From the NCBI GenBank assembly GCA_016187335.1, contig JACPJW010000001.1, forward strand, positions 192,001 to 256,000: a stretch of DNA of 64,000 nucleotides. The letters are read 5' to 3'. A model generated the notes under the pieces. That model was not told the origin of the DNA. It worked only from the letters and a program-made list of their open reading frames with translations, and made no database searches. Within the stretch, counting starts at the first letter, position 1, and each line of letters starts with the position of its first letter. Made by a program: the position numbers and the translations under genes. Of this stretch, positions 16,264 through 51,342 are shown in pieces. The DNA is from Candidatus Aenigmatarchaeota archaeon (GTDB taxonomy: Archaea > Aenigmatarchaeota > Aenigmatarchaeia > GW2011-AR5).

Positions 16264-16679
16264 TTAGGAAAATTAAAGGCTAGCATTGGCGTAGGAGAGC
16301 GTGGGCTGAATAGCTCGCCGAAGCTTGCTACTTACACCCCGCTTCCATACCTGGTCGTCTTGCCAGTGCCGACTGCCTATTTTCGAGAGCGGCTTGGGGC
16401 TTAGATGCTTTCAGCCCTTATCCGCGTATGGCGTAGCTACCCGGCAATGCCTTGTCAGACAACCGGTACACCAGAGGCCACGGAAGGATGTTCCTTTCGT
16501 ACTTATCCTTCCTTTCTCTCAGGCAAAAGCACCTCCAGCAGATATAGACCAAACTGGCTCACACCGTTCTGAACCCAGCTAACGTGCCCTTTTAATCTGT
16601 GAACTCCAGCACCCTTGGCGGCTGCTGCACCGCCAGGAGAGGACGAGCCGACAGCGACGCCGCAACGCGCGGGGTCGAT

Positions 16680-16763
16680 TTGTTCTCTGGATTCTGCGAT
16701 CTAAGTTTGACTACCTCAGGCTATTCCAGCTGAGAATATGTAGACAATGTCGCAGATCCGGAT
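16680..16763 (-). other. 23S BHB intron, 84 nt (~Ec 2477/2478)
   Basis: Central helix GUUC/GAAC with 3-nt bulges. Confidence 0.85.
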
Positions 16764-16791
16764 AAGAACTCTCACCCGCCACGACACCATT

Positions 16792-16891
16792 ATAGGGTAA
16801 AGTAAACCTATAGCTAGTTGCTATCTAAATCTAACTAAATCTAATTTGTTAGCAGACCCAGACTGCGACTTAGCTTCCCGGCTTACTTCAT
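16792..16891 (-). other. 23S BHB intron, 100 nt (Ec U2449/A2450)
   Basis: GGGG/CCCU helix plus outer stem UGAAGUAA/UUACUUUA. Confidence 0.85.
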
Positions 16892-17722
16892 ATCCCCGGG
16901 GTAGCTTTTTGAGACCGAAGTGCTCATAATCTGAAGCCTTTCGAGCTTCATTGCGTTCAGCAACCCAAAATTAGCATGAAATTTTCTGACCATCTCCTCG
17001 CCGTAAATAGCGAAGGAGTAATTCGATATTGAAGAGCATTTTATTTCAAGCCCTTCAAGAACCGAAATTATGAACCTCAATGAACTCTCGTCTTTCTGGG
17101 TGAAAGTTATCCTCGCCCGCTTGTTCTTGACGTTTGCGGAAGGAACATGGCCTTCCGCGTCGAAGAATCCGGCAATATAGGACTTCTGGATTTCTATATC
17201 CGAAGCCCTGATTATCTCCGGAACCGACTTGTGAAGTTTCCCGTCAACCATCATACTGATCATGTAGTATAACGGCTTGGACGAGATGTCAAGGTACTTT
17301 TCACCTATATGCTTCTGGTACCTTACGTGCGGGGTCACTTCGAAAATCCGCTGGAATATATCGCGCAGACTTTCGACCCAAGTTGAGTTTGCAGAATCAT
17401 AAATCCGCACCCAGTGCTTTCCTTTCGAGCGAATCAAGGAACCGTCCCGCATTGCGCCTAGAAGATATGCCAATTGCAGTGTTAGTTCTTCTGGCACTTT
17501 AACTCGTGTATATGCTGAACCGGTTCCTGATTTGAGGTGCGTTACAGAACCAATAATTTCAGGATATTTCTCCGCCAGAAAGGAAAGCGGGAAGGAATTC
17601 AGTCTTTTCCACTTCCTTATCTTGCTGCTTTCTATGCGAATTTCCATCAATCTTGGTTCCAGGATCTCTGCTCTTACCGTAGTGCCGGTTTCCAGAATTC
17701 CCTGGAGTAACTTAAATTTCAT
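16883..17722 (-). CDS. Two-motif LAGLIDADG homing endonuclease
   Basis: LAYLLGAMRDGSL and YIAGFFDAEGHV. Confidence 0.9.
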   Translation of the reverse strand: MKFKLLQGILETGTTVRAEILEPRLMEIRIESSKIRKWKRLNSFPLSFLAEKYPEIIGSVTHLKSGTGSAYTRVKVPEELTLQLAYLLGAMRDGSLIRSKGKHWVRIYDSANSTWVESLRDIFQRIFEVTPHVRYQKHIGEKYLDISSKPLYYMISMMVDGKLHKSVPEIIRASDIEIQKSYIAGFFDAEGHVPSANVKNKRARITFTQKDESSLRFIISVLEGLEIKCSSISNYSFAIYGEEMVRKFHANFGLLNAMKLERLQIMSTSVSKSYPGDMK

Positions 17723-17783
17723 TGAGGCTTTTTGGTCAGAGTAGAATATAAGGATTGCTGAACTGGGGTGAACACTTCGCGTT
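16908..17783 (-). mobile_element. 23S BHB intron, 876 nt, with homing endonuclease gene (~Ec 2433/2434)
   Basis: UGAG/CUCA helix, CGAAGUG/CACUUCG stem. Confidence 0.9.
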
Positions 17784-17907
17784 TTCTCATGTCACAGCCA
17801 GCCATCCAGGCCAAGCTGCGTATCGCTAGCTCACGCTTTCACGGTTGGACACCATTCTGTTAGGAGTCCAATCAATGCAGCTTTTGCGCTTGCACTCTAC
17901 CCTCGAT

Positions 17908-17953
17908 AATCAGGAAACTTTCCGTTTTGATGAAACTTTTCTGAAAAGTTTCT
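17908..17953 (-). other. 23S BHB micro-intron, 46 nt (family-1 hairpin)
   Basis: UCAG/CUGA helix, GAAAC/GUUUC outer stem. Confidence 0.85.
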
Positions 17954-17993
17954 TTCTGACCGAGGTGAGCTGCACTTAGAGGGCGTCTGATAT

Positions 17994-18036
17994 TAAGTCT
18001 AGCAGAGCGTTCTTCATTGCTAGCCCTGCAGGATAT
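17994..18036 (-). other. 23S micro-intron, ~43 nt (helix 81 region)
   Basis: Insertion between duplicated GATAT; relaxed BHB; boundaries approximate. Confidence 0.7.
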
Positions 18037-18344
18037 CTTTTCAGACGCGTACCGCCCCAGCCAAACTGCCCATCTGTTACTGTCCCATAGCTATGCTATG
18101 GTAAGCAGTAAAGTCGAAAAAGGTCGGTGTTACACTTTCGACTCCACGCCACCTTACAGCAGCGCTTCGACGTCTCCCGACTACTCTATACAATCCCGAC
18201 TTTACCACAACAACAGACTGCAGTAAAGCTCCACGGGGTCTACTCTTCCCACTGGAGGTCCCTGGCCTAATCACCAGGACAATAGTTTCGCCGAGTTCCA
18301 GCCCGGGACAGCGACCACCTCGTTAATCTATCATGCAGGCCAAC

Positions 18345-18472
18345 GTTTACAGCCCCTTCCTGATATGTTCTTGCGCAGAAAGCGTAAGCTTTCTGGCATC
18401 TCAAAGAGCTTTGCTCTTTGCAGATTTCCGCAAGCGCTTTTCTTCCAAGAAAAGGGCTTCAAGAAAGGGCTT
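18345..18472 (-). other. 23S intron, 128 nt (helix 71 loop)
   Basis: AGCCC/GGGCU outer stem; contains family-2 and tri-loop hairpins. Confidence 0.8.
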
Positions 18473-18490
18473 ATTTAATTGGCAAGGGAT

Positions 18491-18563
18491 TTAGCGAACC
18501 CTCTGTCGCCATGACAGAACGTTGAGTCTCACGCAAGCGCCCTTTGCAGTGCAAAAGGGGTTT
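18491..18563 (-). other. 23S BHB intron, 73 nt (~Ec 1936)
   Basis: AGCG/CGCU helix, AACCC/GGGUU stem. Confidence 0.85.
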
Positions 18564-18585
18564 TACGCTACCTTAAGACCCTCAT

Positions 18586-18629
18586 CACCGACGAAGCACT
18601 GTCATCTGATCAGACGTGCTTCAGTCTAG
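18586..18629 (-). other. 23S micro-intron, ~44 nt (helix 69 loop)
   Basis: Insertion within the UAACUxUGA loop; boundaries +/-2 nt. Confidence 0.75.
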
Positions 18630-19218
18630 AGTTAGGGCCGGCCTACAGCGGGGCTTAGCCCGGTTGAAACCAGGTTTGACACACCACTAGTGGCCACGAC
18701 TCACTGACCATAGAAAGCCTTTCGACTTGTCGGTCAGTTACGTTTTTGTTAAACAGTCGGGTGGCCCTTGTCACTGCGACCTGCTTGTCCCCAAGCAGGC
18801 ATGCGTTCTACCGAAGATACCGCACTAATTTGCCGAATTCCCTGGGCTGGATTATCTCGAACACCTTCGCCTTCTCGGCGAGGGGCACCTGTGTCGGTTA
18901 TTGGTACGAGCAGCCCACACCGTAACCTGCCTGCTTTTTTAAGAGCTCCGGGAATCGCCCGAACTTCCCTAAAGGGAAGCCGTTCGCATCTTCCTCAGGT
19001 TCTCGCCATGATGACACTCCCCCGAGTTCAATGCTTAAGCATGGCGACGGCCATGCTCAGGATATCCCGAAGCGTTAGCGGCAGGATAAGTATCGGCTGG
19101 TTCCGGAATATTAACCGGATTTCCTTTCCCGCGCGTCTTCCTAAGAGCACGGTTAGGATCGACTGACCCCCAGAAGATAAACTTTACTGGGGAACCCTTG
19201 CCCCTCAGGTGGTAGGGA

Positions 19219-19542
19219 ATTGAGTGCAAGAAGAAGGTGAATTAGCGACTTTCACGAAGTGCTTTAATGAAATAAATACCTAATGTTAATCCGGATACAA
19301 GCTTCGCTGCACCGGTCCAAATAAAAGAAGGGTTACCGGTTGCTCGATAAGCCATAATATCGGTAGCTCCGTCTGCTAAAAGACTTACGCTACCGACTGG
19401 AATTCCTATAGCAGTAACGTATGGATTCATTTCCTGTGAAATTCTTTCAATTCTGTCTGGAGGTTTTTGAAATTCCATATGTCACTACTAATAGATGAGA
19501 ATTTAAAGCCTATCATTCGCTTTTTGGAGCTTCTTCCCGCAT
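19219..19542 (-). mobile_element. 23S intron, 324 nt, carrying a non-nuclease ORF
   Basis: Removal restores GGGCGAGAAUCCCUACC; near-BHB with UGC/GCA outer stem. Confidence 0.8.
19242..19478 (-). CDS. Intron-encoded 78-aa putative membrane peptide
   Basis: Two hydrophobic segments; TTTAAAT ~25 nt upstream of ATG. Confidence 0.65.
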   Translation of the reverse strand: MEFQKPPDRIERISQEMNPYVTAIGIPVGSVSLLADGATDIMAYRATGNPSFIWTGAAKLVSGLTLGIYFIKALRESR

Positions 19543-19729
19543 TTCTCGCCCTACTAATGCTACTCCCACCAGGATCCTCTTTGCTGCAAGGTCCACACTT
19601 CCTCACGGAAACGCTTCTGCCCTCGCAGCACGCCTCCTTACCACTTGCGATTGCTCACAAGTCCGCAGTATCGGTGGTTTCCTTAGCCCCGTCCATTTTC
19701 TCCGCCTTGACTCTCGATGGGTCCGCTAT

Positions 19730-19893
19730 TTCGCGGAAAGCCCCTTTTTCTTGTAAGAAAAAGTCCCTTGGGTTCAAAAAGAACTTTAACTCGCTTCGCT
19801 CGGATATTATTTTTAATAATATAGCGAGCATTAGCGAGCCTTGTGTCTTTCTTTTCCCAAGGGTTTTCTTTCTTCAGAAAGAAAAGGCTTTCT
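19730..19893 (-). other. 23S BHB intron, 164 nt (GTPase-associated centre, ~Ec 1095)
   Basis: CGCG/CGCG helix, GAAAG/CUUUC stem; nested hairpins. Confidence 0.85.
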
Positions 19894-20206
19894 TACGCGT
19901 TGTTTAAATGGTGGCTGCTTCTAAGCCAACATCCCCATTGTCTGAGAATCAGGACCAGATTCAGTGACACTTAGAAAACACTTTGGGACCTTAACTGCAG
20001 TCCGGGTTCGTTCCCTCTCGGATACCAGAATTACTCCGGCACCCTCACTCCCGCTCACGCGATAACGGATTCGGAGTTTGACAAGGCAGGTGGGGATCTC
20101 TCCCCTTGGCTGTCTAATCAGTGCTCTACCCCGTTATCTGCTAAGAGCGAGGCTGTCCTGAGAGACATTTCAGGAGGAACCAGCTATCACCAGATTCGAT
20201 TGGCTT

Positions 20207-20275
20207 TTGGTGTTCGCGAATAGCATACTGAATCTGCGAACAGCAAATTCAGAATAGCTTTAGCTATTCTCGAAT
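20207..20275 (-). other. 23S BHB intron, 69 nt
   Basis: GGUG/CACC helix, UUCG/CGAA stem. Confidence 0.85.
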
Positions 20276-20381
20276 TTCACCCCTAACCCCAGGTCACCCG
20301 AAGGGTTTGGACCACAACCGGTAACAGGCCTCCACCCGCCTTTCGGCAGGCTTCGCCTTGCCCAGGGCTAGATCATCTGGT

Positions 20382-21284
20382 CGCCCGGTCAGAGAATGAG
20401 TTTTATGAGGTTTGTATGAATATCAGATTTTGTTTTGCCCAATTCGCTTGGCTTTAAGCCATATGAATTGGCAGCGAATTTCAGAAGTTGTGATTTTGGA
20501 ATTCCCTTCCATAATCCATTTCCGCTAATTTTCACGCCTTCAACAAAGCCGATTTCCCTTTCAAATTTCTTTATGTTCTCAGGTTTTCTAAGCAACACTG
20601 CATCTTTCAGCATTGTTGGCTTGTACCCAAGTTTTTCAAGCAACCCGAAGTATTGTTTCCTAAGATTTGGATGTTCTGAATAAAGTTTTACGCATCTGTC
20701 GAAACGGAAACCGTATCTTGCCTTTCCGATATTGAAGATTACAGTTCCATCTCCGGTGAATGCGTATCTTAGAAATTGCTTTCCGAGTTCAGAGTTGCTT
20801 AAGATGAACTCCGGAATTATTGTTCCCGGATATTTGTTTTCTGCTTTGTTGTAGGCGAGCGTTCTGTAAGACGGCGAATAACTAATGAGCTCTGCGGCAG
20901 CCTTTCTGCTTATTCCACTCTTGACTTCCCATGAACCTTTGTAGATTCTTTTTCGAAGTTTAAGATGGAAAATCTCGAAGATGAGCCTTTCAAATTCCGC
21001 AACAAGTTCATTGGAGTTAGAAGTGAAAGAAATACTCCATAATCCCGATTTCTTGTTGCACCAAAGGCTGCCGTCTGTAATCAGAAGCCCTATTAGTTGA
21101 GCCATCTTGCCTTGTCTTTCATCAATCTCATTAATTTCGGTTTTGCCGAAATTTTGATTAATGAAATTTAATTTCATGCTTGTTATTAAGGCGAAGCGGG
21201 CTTATCTTGCTTTCGTGTCGAAGACCGAAAGAAAGAATATGTCCCGCTGAGCCAGATAACAAACCTCTAACTCACTCCCCGACT
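20382..21284 (-). mobile_element. 23S BHB intron, 903 nt, with homing endonuclease gene
   Basis: CCCG/CGGG helix, GUCGG/CUGAC stem. Confidence 0.9.
20389..21177 (-). CDS. Two-motif LAGLIDADG homing endonuclease
   Basis: LIGLLITDGSL and FLRYAFTGDGTV. Confidence 0.9.
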   Translation of the reverse strand: MKLNFINQNFGKTEINEIDERQGKMAQLIGLLITDGSLWCNKKSGLWSISFTSNSNELVAEFERLIFEIFHLKLRKRIYKGSWEVKSGISRKAAAELISYSPSYRTLAYNKAENKYPGTIIPEFILSNSELGKQFLRYAFTGDGTVIFNIGKARYGFRFDRCVKLYSEHPNLRKQYFGLLEKLGYKPTMLKDAVLLRKPENIKKFEREIGFVEGVKISGNGLWKGIPKSQLLKFAANSYGLKPSELGKTKSDIHTNLIKLIL

Positions 21285-22574
21285 TTCGGGTCTTATTCCA
21301 GTGACTTCCGCGCTTTCACACGGGGCGCCTCGCTGCCTGCGCGCGCTCGCTTTCGCTGCGGTTCCCTTAGTTAACCTTGCCACTAGAATAAACTCCCTGG
21401 CCCGTTTTTCAAAACGGACACCGCTTTTGTTTCTCTTGCGAGAACGTTAGGCGGCTAACTGTAGCTGCCAGGTTTCAGGTTCTTTTCAGCACCTATTACG
21501 GTTGCTTTTCAGCTTTCCGTCGCCGTACTAATGCGCTATCGGACTTGACGAATATTTAGGATTGGGTCTGAATGCGACCCGCGTTCCGACTCCAAATCCG
21601 AGGAATCGTACTCTGGATACCCGCCGTTGCACTTCCTGCCTTCCCTTACGCGGCTATCACGCTGTGTCGCGCCCCTTTCCAGGGGTCTTCGGGTCAGCAG
21701 GCAAGAGCAGGCACGGGTCCAAACACCACATTGCCCCGCACTCGTCGCGCAGGGCTTCGGTTTGTCCTGTTCCCTTTTCACTCGCCGTTACTGGGGGAAT
21801 CGAATTTCTTTCTTTTCCTGCCCTTACTAAAATGTTTTAATTTTGGGCGTTCGCCCTTCAGAACAGACTTCCGCATCTTTCAGATGCGGGATTTATCTCT
21901 GAAGTTGATGCCTATCGGCATTGGGCAATCTCCGGTTCAAAGGCTGCATGCGCCTACCCGGAGCTTATCGCAGCTTGCCACAACCTTCGTCGCATGTCAA
22001 GCCAGGCCATCCTCCTGACAGCTTGGGAGCTAGCTATCTTCTTTCCTAAGGCGTTCGCCGCTAACAAAGCTACACTTTAGGCATAGCTTTGCAAACGGCT
22101 AACTATTGCTCCAGCCTCGACCTGTGACTGCATCATATGCGTGAATAATCAGTATAATTATTTCGCTCTGCATTTCACCAATCAGCACGCTGACCGGCTC
22201 ATGAAATGAAAGGCAGACTCTGCTTTGAAACAAAATCCGCCGTTTTTATCAAATGGAAAGCCAAGTTCGCACGTTTTCCTGGATTGGCATGCAAACCTCT
22301 GATTTCCTTTCTGCTTTGGCAAACCGTTTTGGTACAACTTTTTTGAAAAGTTGTTCAGAGAAAGAACAGCATAGCGTCACGGCACAAAACGAGATAATTC
22401 TGCGCCACCTACACTGCAACCCGCACGCCCTGTCACGGCGCACAAAGCCACTCTGAACAGCTTCGGTTAACCAATCAACATGAATGTAAATTTTGAACTT
22501 TTCCCTTTTGAAGTTCTACAAATAGCGCAGGATTCCTGACCCTGACACGGTAACCTACATTATACAATATCAAA

Positions 22575-47189: not shown

Positions 47190-47794
47190 GGGCTGCATCT
47201 TGTATATCCTCCGCTACCGAAAAGGGTTTTAATCCTGTTTTTCAAGAAAGTTGCATGAAAAAGCAGGTTCTGAAGCGCATGCCTGAAGAAACGCAGAAAG
47301 TGCATGCCGCTGATTTTGAAAAGGAAAAGAAGAAACTGGAACAGAGCTTCAAAAAGAAAGAAATGCCCTTCCGCCTGTTCTGGGTGAAGTGAAAATATCT
47401 ACTATTTCTGTTAAAACCTGTAGATAGCTTCGGCTAAATCGTATCGATAAAAAAATCCAGCTTTCTTTGCGTTTTGGAAAAAATAGCGCGCAAAGGTACA
47501 GGTAGTTCCGGGTTACGTCCCGGAACTCACGGAGCCGCAGCTCCGATGAATTGGCATTCTATCTCATGGCCCTCTTTTGATGAAACTTTTTTGAAAAGTT
47601 TCAGAGGAAAGCACACTGACTGTCGCAGAACCCTTTCGGATTCTTTTGATAAAACTTTTCTTGAAAGAAAAGTTTTTAGGAGGTGATCCAGCCGCACGTT
47701 CCCGTACGGCTACCTTGTTACGACTTAGCCCTCCTTGCAGACAATTGATTCGACTTATTCAGCATAAGCCTCACCAAAAGTCCACTCGGATGGC

Positions 47795-47826
<32 letters not shown>

Positions 47827-47840
47827 CATTCAGCGAAAGA

Positions 47841-48030
47841 TTCCACGATTATGAGATCATCATAGTGCTGCTTCTACTCGACCAAAGACATCCGCCCATA
47901 CTTTTAATCACCAGACCGCTACGGATTTCTTTCCGTAGACGCTTTCTTTTTAAGAAAGGGTCTTCATAGTCAAGCACTTCTTCTGTCTTTGATTTTGTAG
48001 CGCCAAAAAATCATTTGGATCTCACATCCA
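47841..48030 (-). other. 16S intron, 190 nt (~Ec 1360s)
   Basis: Relaxed BHB UCAU/GUGG; contains a family-2 hairpin. Confidence 0.8.
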
Positions 48031-48389
48031 TGATGACCTTCGCTTACTAGGGATTCCGGCTTCACGTGGGCGAATTGCAGCCCACGATCTGAACTAGGCG
48101 CCGGTTTGAGAGATTGGCTTCACCTCACGGTGTTGCATCCCATTGTCCGACGCATTGTAGGCCGCGTGTAGCCCCGGAAATTTAGGCCATACTGACCTGC
48201 CGTAGACCGCTCCTTCCTCTGGCTTAGCGCCAGCGGTCCCGCTAAAGTGCATGCCCTGCGTACAGGACATTCGCAACTAGCGGCACGGGTCTCACTCGTT
48301 TCGTGACTTAACACGACACTTCACAGCACGAGCTGACGACGGCCATGCAGCACTTCTCAGTTTGTTAGGTAACCCCTTTAGAGTGACCC

Positions 48390-48962
48390 TCATTCTACTG
48401 TCTTCCCGGGTGAGGTCTCCAGAGAGGAATCCTCATATTTCCAAAGAATGCGTTTGCCTTCATTCTTTCTTGCCACACTACGCGCGGATTCAAGGTCGCG
48501 CAATGTTTCCCTTATTGTGCTTGGCATCAATCTTAATCCAAGGCACAATTCTCCTATGCTCCACCACTTATCATTTTTTCTGATCAACGCAACTATCTTC
48601 TCTTTCGTTGAAGCTTTGTTGCGCATGAAGCCGCCTTTCATCCCTTCTCTTTCCAAGAGAAGCTTCGCCCATTGATTCTTAATCGGTTCCGCAAATTCCC
48701 CTGCAATGGAATAAATCTCCCTGAAAGCATTCCTATGCAGCTTGAAGCCGATGTTTTCTCTTTTGACGAACTTTTTGCTTGCCCAGCCATGCGCTTTGCA
48801 GACCTCAAAAATAGTGTTAAGCTGATTTCTGTTTCTGCTTGACTGAACAAGCACAGGCGACTCTTCAGCTATAAAGCTGAATTCAAACTCGATTAGTGGA
48901 AGGAGTATAGAAGCTGTAAGTTTTTGCCTTTCTTTGCTCGCTCGTAAACACTTATCATCCAT
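48390..48962 (-). CDS. Degenerate single-motif LAGLIDADG-like domain plus winged HTH
   Basis: LTASILLPLIEFEFSF in the motif position; C-terminal SIGELCLGLRLMPSTIRETLRDLE. Confidence 0.55.
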   Translation of the reverse strand: MDDKCLRASKERQKLTASILLPLIEFEFSFIAEESPVLVQSSRNRNQLNTIFEVCKAHGWASKKFVKRENIGFKLHRNAFREIYSIAGEFAEPIKNQWAKLLLEREGMKGGFMRNKASTKEKIVALIRKNDKWWSIGELCLGLRLMPSTIRETLRDLESARSVARKNEGKRILWKYEDSSLETSPGKTVE

Positions 48963-49015
48963 AGTACTGTATACTTTGGATGATTTATTGGTTTCCGTAC
49001 TCGAGTATTCCTCTT
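48417..49015 (-). mobile_element. 16S BHB intron, 599 nt (~Ec 978), with ORF
   Basis: CCAG/CUGG helix, AGAG/CUCU stem. Confidence 0.9.
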
Positions 49016-49035
49016 TCCTGGCGTTGAATCCAATT

Positions 49036-49075
49036 TTCGGCCCAAGCCAATGATATACGTTTCACTGAACTCGGT
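49036..49075 (-). other. 16S BHB micro-intron, 40 nt (~Ec 957)
   Basis: CGGU/GCCG helix. Confidence 0.8.
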
Positions 49076-49114
49076 AAACCGCAGCCTCCACCCCTGGTAG
49101 TGCTCCCCCGCCAA

Positions 49115-49726
49115 TTAGGGGAAAGTAATCCCATCATTTAGCAGCTTCAATCTGAGCTGCTTATCCTTGTGCCAACTTCCGATGTTTTTGCAGAAGTATA
49201 GAAGATTGTTCTTCCTTGTCAGCCTGAATTCCCAGACATTACCGCAAAAGGTAATGTTTGTTGGCTGGCAACTTTGATCAATCAAAACCTGTCTAATGAA
49301 TTCCAAAGATTCCCTGTTTTTCTGGCTGAACGAGATGTATTTCTGTTTCGCTGTATCTGGTTTCTTTGGAAGTCCTCCTTCTGCATCAAAGAATCCTTTC
49401 AAATAGTGAATTTGAATTTTCACTTTCTGTTCCTTTATGCATTTTGGAGTATCCCAGAATTCCTGCGGTGTTTCGAAATCGGATATATCGAGAATTTTTT
49501 CAACATAGCTTCTTCCGTTAATCCTCAGTATTTCCGTTCCGTTTGCATGTTTTGTTATGGTGCCGCGAGCTTCAAACTCTTTATGGAAAAGAGTTTGCAA
49601 AAGGCGTAACCATGATGTCTCTCTTTGTGCTATTTTAATTTCGTAGTTTTTTCCTTTCCTGACATCTATGGATGCGTCTCTCATAGCACCTAACAGATAC
49701 GCAAGTTCTGGGCTGACAGGCTTCAC
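49115..49726 (-). CDS. Two-motif LAGLIDADG homing endonuclease
   Basis: LAYLLGAMRDASI and YLKGFFDAEGGL. Confidence 0.9.
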   Translation of the reverse strand: MKPVSPELAYLLGAMRDASIDVRKGKNYEIKIAQRETSWLRLLQTLFHKEFEARGTITKHANGTEILRINGRSYVEKILDISDFETPQEFWDTPKCIKEQKVKIQIHYLKGFFDAEGGLPKKPDTAKQKYISFSQKNRESLEFIRQVLIDQSCQPTNITFCGNVWEFRLTRKNNLLYFCKNIGSWHKDKQLRLKLLNDGITFP

Positions 49727-49778
49727 TCTATAACTTTGGCAGCAGGGATATTTAAGTGTGGTATCGGGGTTACTTTCT
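49115..49778 (-). mobile_element. 16S BHB intron, 664 nt (~Ec 919), with homing endonuclease gene
   Basis: AGGG/CCCU helix, GAAAGUAA/UUACUUUC stem. Confidence 0.9.
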
Positions 49779-49908
49779 TTCCCTTAAGTTTCAGCCTTGC
49801 GGCCGTAATCCCCAGGCGGCCCGTTTAACGCCTTCGCTTCGGCACCACGGATCCACGAAGGATTCGTGACACCAAACGGGCAACGTTTACAGCTAGGACT
49901 ACCGGGGT

Positions 49909-49990
49909 CTTTAGGACCCTTTTGCGATTTTATTCGCGGTAGCGTGATTTCCGTAGACGCTTTTACGCGCTTGCATGCGTAAAAGGGTCT
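49909..49990 (-). other. 16S BHB intron, 82 nt (Ec 793/794)
   Basis: UUAG/CUAA helix, GACCC/GGGUC stem. Confidence 0.88.
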
Positions 49991-50001
49991 ATCTAATCCC
50001 G

Positions 50002-50035
50002 AATGAACTCGACTAAGATTTTCGTCTTAGTTCGA
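50002..50035 (-). other. 16S micro-intron, ~34 nt (~Ec 781)
   Basis: Hairpin insertion; imperfect BHB. Confidence 0.75.
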
Positions 50036-50090
50036 TTCGCTCCCCTAGCTTTCGTCCCTCACCGTCGGACCCGTTCCAGCCAAGCGCCTT

Positions 50091-50134
50091 ACGTGGAAAC
50101 TTTTCCGTTTTGATTGAATTTTTTGAAAAGTTCA
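50091..50134 (-). other. 16S BHB micro-intron, 44 nt (~Ec 722)
   Basis: GUGG/CCAC helix; family-1 hairpin. Confidence 0.88.
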
Positions 50135-50338
50135 CGCCACAGGTGGTCCCCTACGGATTAAAAGATTTTACCCTTACCCGTAGAGTACCCTTGGCCTCTC
50201 CCGGTCCCAAGCCCGATAGTATCTCCAGCAAGCCTTACAGTTTGCTGCAAGATTTCACCAAAGACACATCGAGCCGGCTACGGACGCTTCAGGCCCAATA
50301 AACGTGACTACCCCTCGTGGCGCGGTTATTACCGCGGC

Positions 50339-50389
50339 ATCCAGATCCTTTTCCGTCAACGCTTTTGCGTCTTCAGACGTAAAAGGGTT
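50339..50389 (-). other. 16S BHB micro-intron, 51 nt (530 loop, ~Ec 523)
   Basis: CCAG/CUGG helix; family-2 hairpin. Confidence 0.88.
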
Positions 50390-50428
50390 GGCTGGCAACC
50401 GTCTTGCCCACCACTTATTCCTCCACCT

Positions 50429-50483
50429 ATGTAATCCTTTCTTCCGTTTCTTTCGCAAGCGTTTTCTTTTCGAAAGAAAAGGC
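50429..50483 (-). other. 16S helix-17 insertion, probable intron, ~55 nt
   Basis: GUAA/UUAC helix; family-2 hairpin. Confidence 0.65.
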
Positions 50484-50550
50484 TTTTACAGTGGAGAAAA
50501 GACAGCGCTAAGCGCTGCCACTCAGGGTTCCCTTGTCAGGCTTTCACCCA

Positions 50551-50600
50551 GTTTGCGAACTTTTCAGTTCCGTTTTGATGGAACTTTTCTGAAAAGTTCC
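50551..50600 (-). other. 16S BHB micro-intron, 50 nt (~Ec 374)
   Basis: UUGC/GCAA helix, GAAC/GUUC stem; family-1 hairpin. Confidence 0.88.
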
Positions 50601-50606
50601 TTGCAA

Positions 50607-50639
<33 letters not shown>

Positions 50640-51342
50640 CGTTCATGTCTCAGAACGCATCTCCGGGCTATCGCTCTCACGACCCGTACGGATTACAGCC
50701 TTGTTGAGCAATTATCTCAACAACAAGCTAATCCGCCGCAGTCCCATCGTTCAGTGCATTGCTGCTTTCAGCGAAGATGCCTTCCAGCAATTATCGCCTA
50801 TCGGGTATTATTCCCACTTTCGCAGGATTATCCCCGTCTGAACGGCAGGTTAACTACGTGTTACTGAGCAGTGCGACGAGGTCTTGCACCTCACGTCTCG
50901 CATGGCTTAGCCGAACCCTGATAAAGGTAGTCTCCGGCGGGATCAACCGGAATTGTGCGGGAAAACACAAACCCTTGTGGTTATGTGTCCCTACCATTTG
51001 ATAGAGTCTTGCCTACCCATACCTTTGTTCACTTGTAAGCATGCTTACCAGCTCATATTTATCATGCAGCGGAAGTGTTTCTTCACGAAAAAGGCTGTTG
51101 CCTTAAAATCCGAAACGACGCCTTGCTGTCATGAATAATCATTTCAGTTTTGACTCATCCGCTTTTTACAGCAGAATGTGCCGCGTAATTATTATCCAGT
51201 CAAAAGCGTTCGTAAGAACTGCTTCGCTTTAACGAGCAAGCCAGCTAGCTAGAAGTATAGTTGCCAAACTATGCCCGTCTCAATACTTTCAAGGCACGAT
51301 TCTTAGAACCGCACCACACCATCAATAAATAAAGAAGGGAAC

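Follow-up and report, generated by a model that had tools for sequence, protein, structure and literature searches.

The window, by which we mean the whole stretch of 64,000 nucleotides that was analysed, belongs to a genome of 1.01 Mb in two contigs, and its best protein and locus matches are found in Aenigmatarchaeota and other DPANN archaea of groundwater origin. The 23S rRNA gene in the window measures 5.76 kb versus the 2987 positions of the corresponding model, which means that it is heavily split by introns. The 16S rRNA gene (47678-50953, minus strand; 3.3 kb) is unlinked, being located 25 kb from the 23S gene, and it is also heavily intron-split. The 16S introns contain a 203-codon LAGLIDADG ORF (49115-49726) that is 34% identical to the endonuclease described below, and a 190-codon ORF (48390-48962) without a Pfam match. 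The features of the 23S gene around the intron of interest are as follows:

16275..22038, minus strand: 23S rRNA gene (Rfam LSU_rRNA_archaea, 1886 bits, full length)
16908..17783, minus strand: BHB intron of 876 nt, equal to 292 codons (exon alignments, BHB fold, intron-less allele)
17786..17789, minus strand: 5' strand of the central BHB helix, UGAG, at the end of the 5' exon (sequence and fold)
17783-17785, minus strand: AAA bulge after UGAG (sequence and fold)
17770..17779, minus strand: 5' strand of the intron-side helix, CGAAGUGUUC (sequence and fold)
17745..17751, minus strand: TATA-like box TTATATT, candidate intron-internal promoter (-29 to -23 from the ATG)
16883..17722, minus strand: LAGLIDADG homing-endonuclease ORF, 279 codons plus TAA (translation, Pfam, homologs)
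about 17438-17473, minus strand: first endonuclease motif, LAYLLGAMRDGS (translation)
17147-17179, minus strand: second endonuclease motif, YIAGFFDAEGH (translation)
16916-16925, minus strand: 3' strand of the intron-side helix, GAGCACUUCG, in the last codons of the ORF (sequence and fold)
16910..16913, minus strand: 3' strand of the central BHB helix, CUCA, within the ORF (sequence and fold)
16907-16909, minus strand: AAA bulge after CUCA (sequence and fold)
16892..16907, minus strand: micro-exon of 16 nt, AAGCUACCCCGGGGAU, read by the ORF as ..SYPGD (exon alignment and intron-less allele)
16792..16891, minus strand: second BHB intron, 100 nt, without an ORF (canonical BHB, intron-less allele)

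The 876-nt intron interrupts the rRNA at ..GAGAA|AAGCUACC.., between positions 2530 and 2531 of the Rfam archaeal LSU model (about E. coli 2434). Accordingly, the exon alignment obtained with cmscan breaks off at ..GACAUGAGAAAA (model position 2530, window position 17782) and picks up again beyond the micro-exon. The predicted fold contains the BHB core, namely a central helix of 4 bp with two 3-nt bulges on opposite strands, and an intron-side helix of 10 bp. On the exon side the helix does not abut the bulge and a 6-nt loop lies opposite. This BHB is thus a relaxed form with a poor exon-side helix. The limits of the intron were defined by placing the cut after the second bulge nucleotide but, owing to the runs of A, any consistent cut yields 876 nt on condition that GAGAAAAGCUACC is the sequence of the mature rRNA. 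An intron-less allele from a related organism, which was found in the same metagenomes, reads 17782|GCTACCTCGGGG|16793, from which it follows that the two introns together comprise 976 nt, i.e. 876 + 100. Both the Rfam exon alignment and this allele show that removal of the 876-nt intron restores conserved rRNA. The enzymes for excision and ligation are encoded in the same genome, as evidenced by a splicing endonuclease (EndA; PF01974, 97 bits) and an RtcB ligase (PF01139, 528 bits). A group I or group II intron was considered and rejected, because a scan of the whole window at the Rfam gathering thresholds matched the two rRNAs only; group I introns are known in archaea (PMC6125680).

The conserved GCUACCCCGGGGAU segment, which carries nucleotides of the peptidyl-transferase centre, stands isolated as a micro-exon between two introns. 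The BHB of the 100-nt intron is canonical, with a GGGG/CCCU helix, AUA bulges and a fold z-score of -3.5. Its junction, GGGGAU|AAUGG, is that of the intron-less allele and lies near E. coli U2449. The same pair of introns was observed at loci L084, L085 and L089, and probably also occurs at L004, L086, L087, L090 and L095. A single endonuclease target covering both insertion sites would measure about 20 bp.

The product of the ORF in the 876-nt intron was assigned to the LAGLIDADG homing endonucleases by a match to the Pfam family LAGLIDADG_3 (PF14528) with a score of 29.6 bits, the cut-off being 22.5. Distant profile matches were to PI-PfuI, a Thermoproteus intron endonuclease and structures of I-DmoI, and the similarity to the I-DmoI structure 5ak9 is weak but detectable (E=0.0017). 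An alignment with 19 homologs, in which identity goes down to 41%, contains 31 invariant columns. The two LAGLIDADG motifs, each of which ends in an acidic catalytic residue, are invariant in the 19 homologs (LLGAMRDGS and GFFDAEG), and the C-terminal tail is unconserved. The ORF passes through the 3' splice site and the 16-nt exon and ends at the TAA at 16885-16883, so that its stop codon is contained in the 100-nt intron. Such an overrun of the 3' splice site is common, since it was found in 11 of 17 same-site homologs, and the C-termini of homologs often correspond to the GCUACCCCGGGGAU exon read in any of its three frames (SYPGD, KLPRG or ATPGI).

The frame of the endonuclease is also open on the 5' side of the ATG, as translation of 17785-16883 meets no stop before the TAA at 16885-16883. 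When the intron was circularised in silico, exactly one frame was fully open, with 876 nt and 0 stops, and this was the frame of the endonuclease. The circle is stop-free because 876 is divisible by three and because the 61-nt leader in front of the ATG has no stop in that frame. The predicted peptide across the circle junction reads ..SVSK-KTRSVHPSSAILIFYSDQKAS-MKF.., or in another extract ..SKKTRSVHPSSAILIFYSDQKASMKF.., which agrees with the peptide quoted in an earlier note on this DNA. That note had proposed that the UGAG/CUCA BHB sets the intron at 16908-17783 (876 nt or 292 codons), that the homing-endonuclease ORF crosses the 16-nt exon as SKSYPGD to stop at the TAA at 16883-16885, and that the joined ends of the intron are in frame and stop-free. 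These proposals were borne out by the fold, the exon alignments and the intron-less allele, by translation, and by the circular frame test, respectively. The note had also pointed out that a base error might hide a stop. This is unlikely, since metagenome DNA contigs from two independent studies are identical over the intron, covering it with 0 mismatches and 0 indels. In the literature, we did not find an endless ORF described for any natural intron circle of archaea.

We then asked how the endless property is distributed. Homologous introns were taken from genomes, metagenomes and assemblies, all of them inserted at the same 23S site, and each was measured. Among 16 distinct same-site introns the length modulo 3 was 0, 1 or 2 in 7, 6 and 3 cases, respectively (P=0.26). 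The expectation that homologous introns would keep their length divisible by three was therefore not upheld, the nearest relatives having in-frame stops or lengths of 875 or 883 nt. Only 2 of the 16 are endless, namely the intron in the window and that at L087 (921 nt; 53% amino-acid identity; identical in sequence to L091). L086, which is 87% identical to L087 at the nucleotide level, differs by a 1-nt indel located in the leader; with its resulting 922 nt it is not endless. None of the three nearest relatives is endless either: L084 (75% amino-acid identity) has an in-frame TAA 12 nt 5' of the ATG, L089 (64%) is also 876 nt long but has stops within the intron and in the leader, and L085 (62%) has a length of 875 nt. 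Among these relatives the ATG is found at intron position 60, 61 or 62. The leader thus varies in length, which indicates that its frame is not conserved. The endonuclease frame is open from end to end in 5 introns, 2 of which have a length divisible by three, so that multiples of three are neither enriched nor depleted in this group. A comparator-based boundary method reproduced four of the same-site lengths and resolved 15 more endonuclease introns elsewhere; none of these 15 introns at other rRNA sites would form an endless circle. Altogether, this survey resolved 22 of 176 candidate ORFs, a proportion that is explained by the shortness of the exons. Given an ORF that runs over the splice site, the chance of an endless circle was estimated from the probability that the length is divisible by three (1/3) and the frequency of stop-free 61-nt leaders in shuffled sequences (0.39), giving about 1/3 x 0.39 = 0.13. 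The endless property of the 876-nt circle is therefore not beyond chance.

The ATG of the endonuclease is located 22 nt downstream of TTATATT, a position that coincides with the genome-wide TATA peak. Indeed, start codons throughout this genome are preceded by T at -29 to -27, A at -26 to -24 and an A-rich block at -36 to -32, and they show only a weak G peak at -9/-8. These features of the start codons indicate that leaderless mRNAs are common in this genome. The sequence TTTAAAT occurs at the same spacing at L004, L085, L089 and L084, and the spacer of 21-23 nt is itself not conserved. In a survey of the whole class, 145 distinct LAGLIDADG ORFs from DPANN rRNA-intron loci (L004-L168) were aligned on their first ATG. 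A strong BRE/TATA signal appeared at -35 to -22, with an AT content of up to 0.87 at -26 and a frequency of A of 0.5 at -33/-32. Runs of six A/T bases starting at -29 were present in 66 of the 145 ORFs versus a baseline of about 15, and a G-rich Shine-Dalgarno signal was absent from this set. The 3' end of the 16S rRNA has CCUCC, and no complement to it was found within 20 nt upstream of the endonuclease AUG. With a position matrix derived from its own genome, the endonuclease ATG scored 1.82, which equals the median score of genes and falls in the top 6% of internal ATGs; this matrix is weak, as it mixes leaderless, Shine-Dalgarno-led and operon-internal genes, and the cross-family profile is more informative. 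The view that no Shine-Dalgarno sequence precedes the ATG, which the earlier note had expressed, is thus confirmed by a leader without complementarity to the 16S CCUCC. Its suggestion of expression from an internal TATA box has likewise gained support, both from the placement of TTATATT at the TATA position of the genome and from the signal in the 145 intron endonuclease genes. These findings imply that leaderless transcripts from intron-internal promoters would be the general rule for the endonuclease genes of DPANN rRNA introns.

In a sister clade, the element at -30 to -24 (AGATAAG) adjoins a covarying stem, and some of what is conserved in the leader could be an RNA structure and not a promoter. 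The module concerned lies 22-23 nt upstream of the endonuclease ATG and was observed in the window at 21190-21250 (minus strand), at L005:2889-2960, L006:131-191, L090:1428-1487, L092:1353-1430 and L088:1372-1442. Its stem shows covariation (GGCAGG/CCUGCC, GGCAUCC/GGAUGCC, GGCGUCC/GGACGCC and AGCGGG/CCCGCU) and surrounds CAUAUUCU, a small hairpin and AGAUAAG. No match to it was found in Rfam, and the module is common to the other endonuclease intron in the 23S gene of the window and to introns at a different rRNA site. This other intron (20382-21284, minus strand) is 903 nt long, which is also a multiple of three, and has a BHB with a CCCG/CGGG helix and AAA and CGA bulges; its limits were set by visual inspection of the sequence and the Rfam alignment. 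It carries a LAGLIDADG ORF of 262 codons (21177-20389) that ends in a TGA 7 nt 5' of the 3' splice site. Because this stop lies inside the intron, the 903-nt circle would not be endless.

To our knowledge, the route by which homing endonucleases encoded by introns within archaeal rRNA genes are expressed has never been settled. The explanation that we consider likely is that the 876-nt element is a mobile BHB intron with an intact endonuclease gene, that this gene is expressed as a leaderless mRNA from an internal promoter, and that the endless circle is incidental. An intron-internal BRE/TATA promoter would direct a leaderless mRNA that starts at or beside the ATG. As such a transcript would lack the 5' half of the BHB, it could be neither spliced at the 876-nt intron nor circularised. 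Its translation would end at whichever stop comes next, which would explain both why the stop codon can leave the intron and why the C-terminal tail is unconserved. The gene is packed so tightly that its last codons form the 3' strand of the splicing helix; it has lost any in-intron stop codon, and termination is left to the downstream sequence, here the TAA in the 100-nt intron. In the rRNA precursor, EndA would probably cut out the intron and RtcB would close it; the resulting circle, having neither a 5' end nor a Shine-Dalgarno sequence, is probably no significant template for translation. The stop-free circle is thus probably a sporadic by-product of extreme gene packing. The merit of this model is its simplicity, as selfish intron genes would be expressed independently of rRNA processing.

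Alternatively, the ligated 876-nt circle might itself be translated, as had been suggested in the earlier note; starting from the internal AUG, ribosomes would continue in endless rounds and give endonuclease concatemers joined by a 21-residue linker. Being stop-free and in frame, the circle would permit this; the genome encodes EndA and RtcB, ORF-bearing archaeal rRNA introns have been reported to be stable as circles (PMC3326292), and a second lineage, L087, is endless as well. However, the property is missing from the three nearest relatives and from the closely similar sister of L087, it is confined to 2 of 16 same-site and 0 of 15 other-site introns, lengths divisible by three are not enriched, and the occurrence of one such circle is within chance expectation. 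In addition, the leader shifts by 1-2 nt among relatives, which argues against a coding constraint, there is no Shine-Dalgarno sequence, the circle offers no 5' end for leaderless initiation, and the promoter signal at the ATG accounts for expression without the circle. We therefore regard rolling-circle translation as extremely improbable, and we give hardly any credence to the broader proposition that, here and separately in the lineage of L087, an abundant intron circle derived from the rRNA is read without termination into tandem concatemers. If true, Archaea would thereby gain their first natural circular mRNA that has an infinite ORF, and a prokaryote would possess a natural rolling-circle mRNA.

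It is also conceivable, though rather unlikely, that the circle is irrelevant because the unspliced pre-rRNA or the linear excised intron is translated by internal initiation at the AUG. From the precursor this would yield a product of 279 residues with the end ..SYPGDMK. On the DNA and the precursor, the ORF is properly terminated 25 nt beyond the splice site, and in 11 of 11 homologs with an ORF that overruns this site, the next stop comes within 2-25 nt. Such initiation would have to proceed without a Shine-Dalgarno sequence, a template at rRNA level would overproduce the nuclease, and the 145 genes of this kind, with their BRE/TATA signal at a constant spacing from the ATG, rather suggest a dedicated transcript. 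Lastly, homing endonuclease genes often degenerate after fixation of their intron, and both the unconserved C-terminal tail and the missing in-intron stop might be viewed as signs of a decaying, silent gene. We consider this to be very unlikely: the ORF is full-length, both catalytic motifs are intact, the invariant columns are maintained across the homologs, a promoter-like element has been kept, and intron-less target alleles still exist in the community.

The view that the intron is mobile is in line with its distribution. The endonuclease is present in 1 of 60 related genomes searched, and intron-less 23S alleles co-occur with the intron-bearing one in the same samples; rarity among relatives combined with coexisting intron-less alleles is the pattern of a mobile element. 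A candidate homing target, the intron-less site GAGAAAAGCUACCYCGGGGAUAAUGG, exists in the community. Intron-less alleles, with 5 mismatches in 106 nt (16782-17887), were observed in 4 of 4 metagenome DNA runs from both studies, and in one run an intron-less contig attained a word depth about 4 times that of the contig with the intron. These alleles could serve as homing targets. A second metagenome variant at 16782-17887 has only a different short insert.

The intron of I-DmoI is located in domain IV of the 23S rRNA. I-DmoI is reportedly expressed from the excised intron RNA, in both linear and circular form, so that translation of an excised intron has been proposed before. The present element resembles the introns of I-DmoI (Desulfurococcus mobilis 23S) and of Pyrobaculum in being a BHB intron in rRNA that encodes a monomeric LAGLIDADG endonuclease with two motifs. 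It differs from them in that its 876 nt are inserted at about E. coli 2434, that the host is a mesophilic DPANN archaeon, and that there is no stop inside the intron, the circle being stop-free and a multiple of three. After excision, those rRNA introns of Desulfurococcus and Pyrobaculum that carry an ORF are reported to be stable as circles (PMC3326292). The intron of I-PogI in the 23S gene of Pyrobaculum oguniense lies next to an ORF-less intron (Nakayama et al. 2003, as cited in PMC4496867). As far as that citation describes it, the arrangement is like the one in the window, an endonuclease intron being placed directly beside a small ORF-less BHB intron such that a target of about 20 bp can span both; here, unlike in that description, the introns are 16 nt apart and the endonuclease ORF takes its stop from the neighbouring intron.

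Engineered circles with an infinite ORF are translated by a rolling-circle mechanism (PMC4639774), and eukaryotic circRNAs with an infinite ORF have been reviewed (PMC11724312). They share with the present intron a closed RNA, which in our case is predicted, a length divisible by three, and the lack of an in-frame stop. However, translation and internal ribosome entry have been demonstrated for them, whereas the predicted archaeal circle has no evident Shine-Dalgarno or other entry element, and its endless property is not conserved. Another parallel is offered by ordinary archaeal genes. In leaderless archaeal mRNAs, the start codon follows the centre of the BRE/TATA element by about 26-27 nt; the region preceding this ATG, like that of the 145 related intron ORFs, agrees in spacing and composition with this architecture and with the genes of the genome itself. 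The difference from usual leaderless genes is that the candidate promoter would sit within an intron of the rRNA and would act on the strand of the rRNA operon itself.

As a further observation on the 23S gene, the mature rRNA at 16786-16796 (minus strand) reads GGGGAUAAUGG as compared to GGGGAUAACAG in the archaeal consensus. By our own numbering, this change corresponds to U and G in place of C and A at E. coli positions 2452 and 2453 in the peptidyl-transferase centre. It is common to the Aenigmatarchaeota relatives L005, L006 and L092 and to the intron-less allele.
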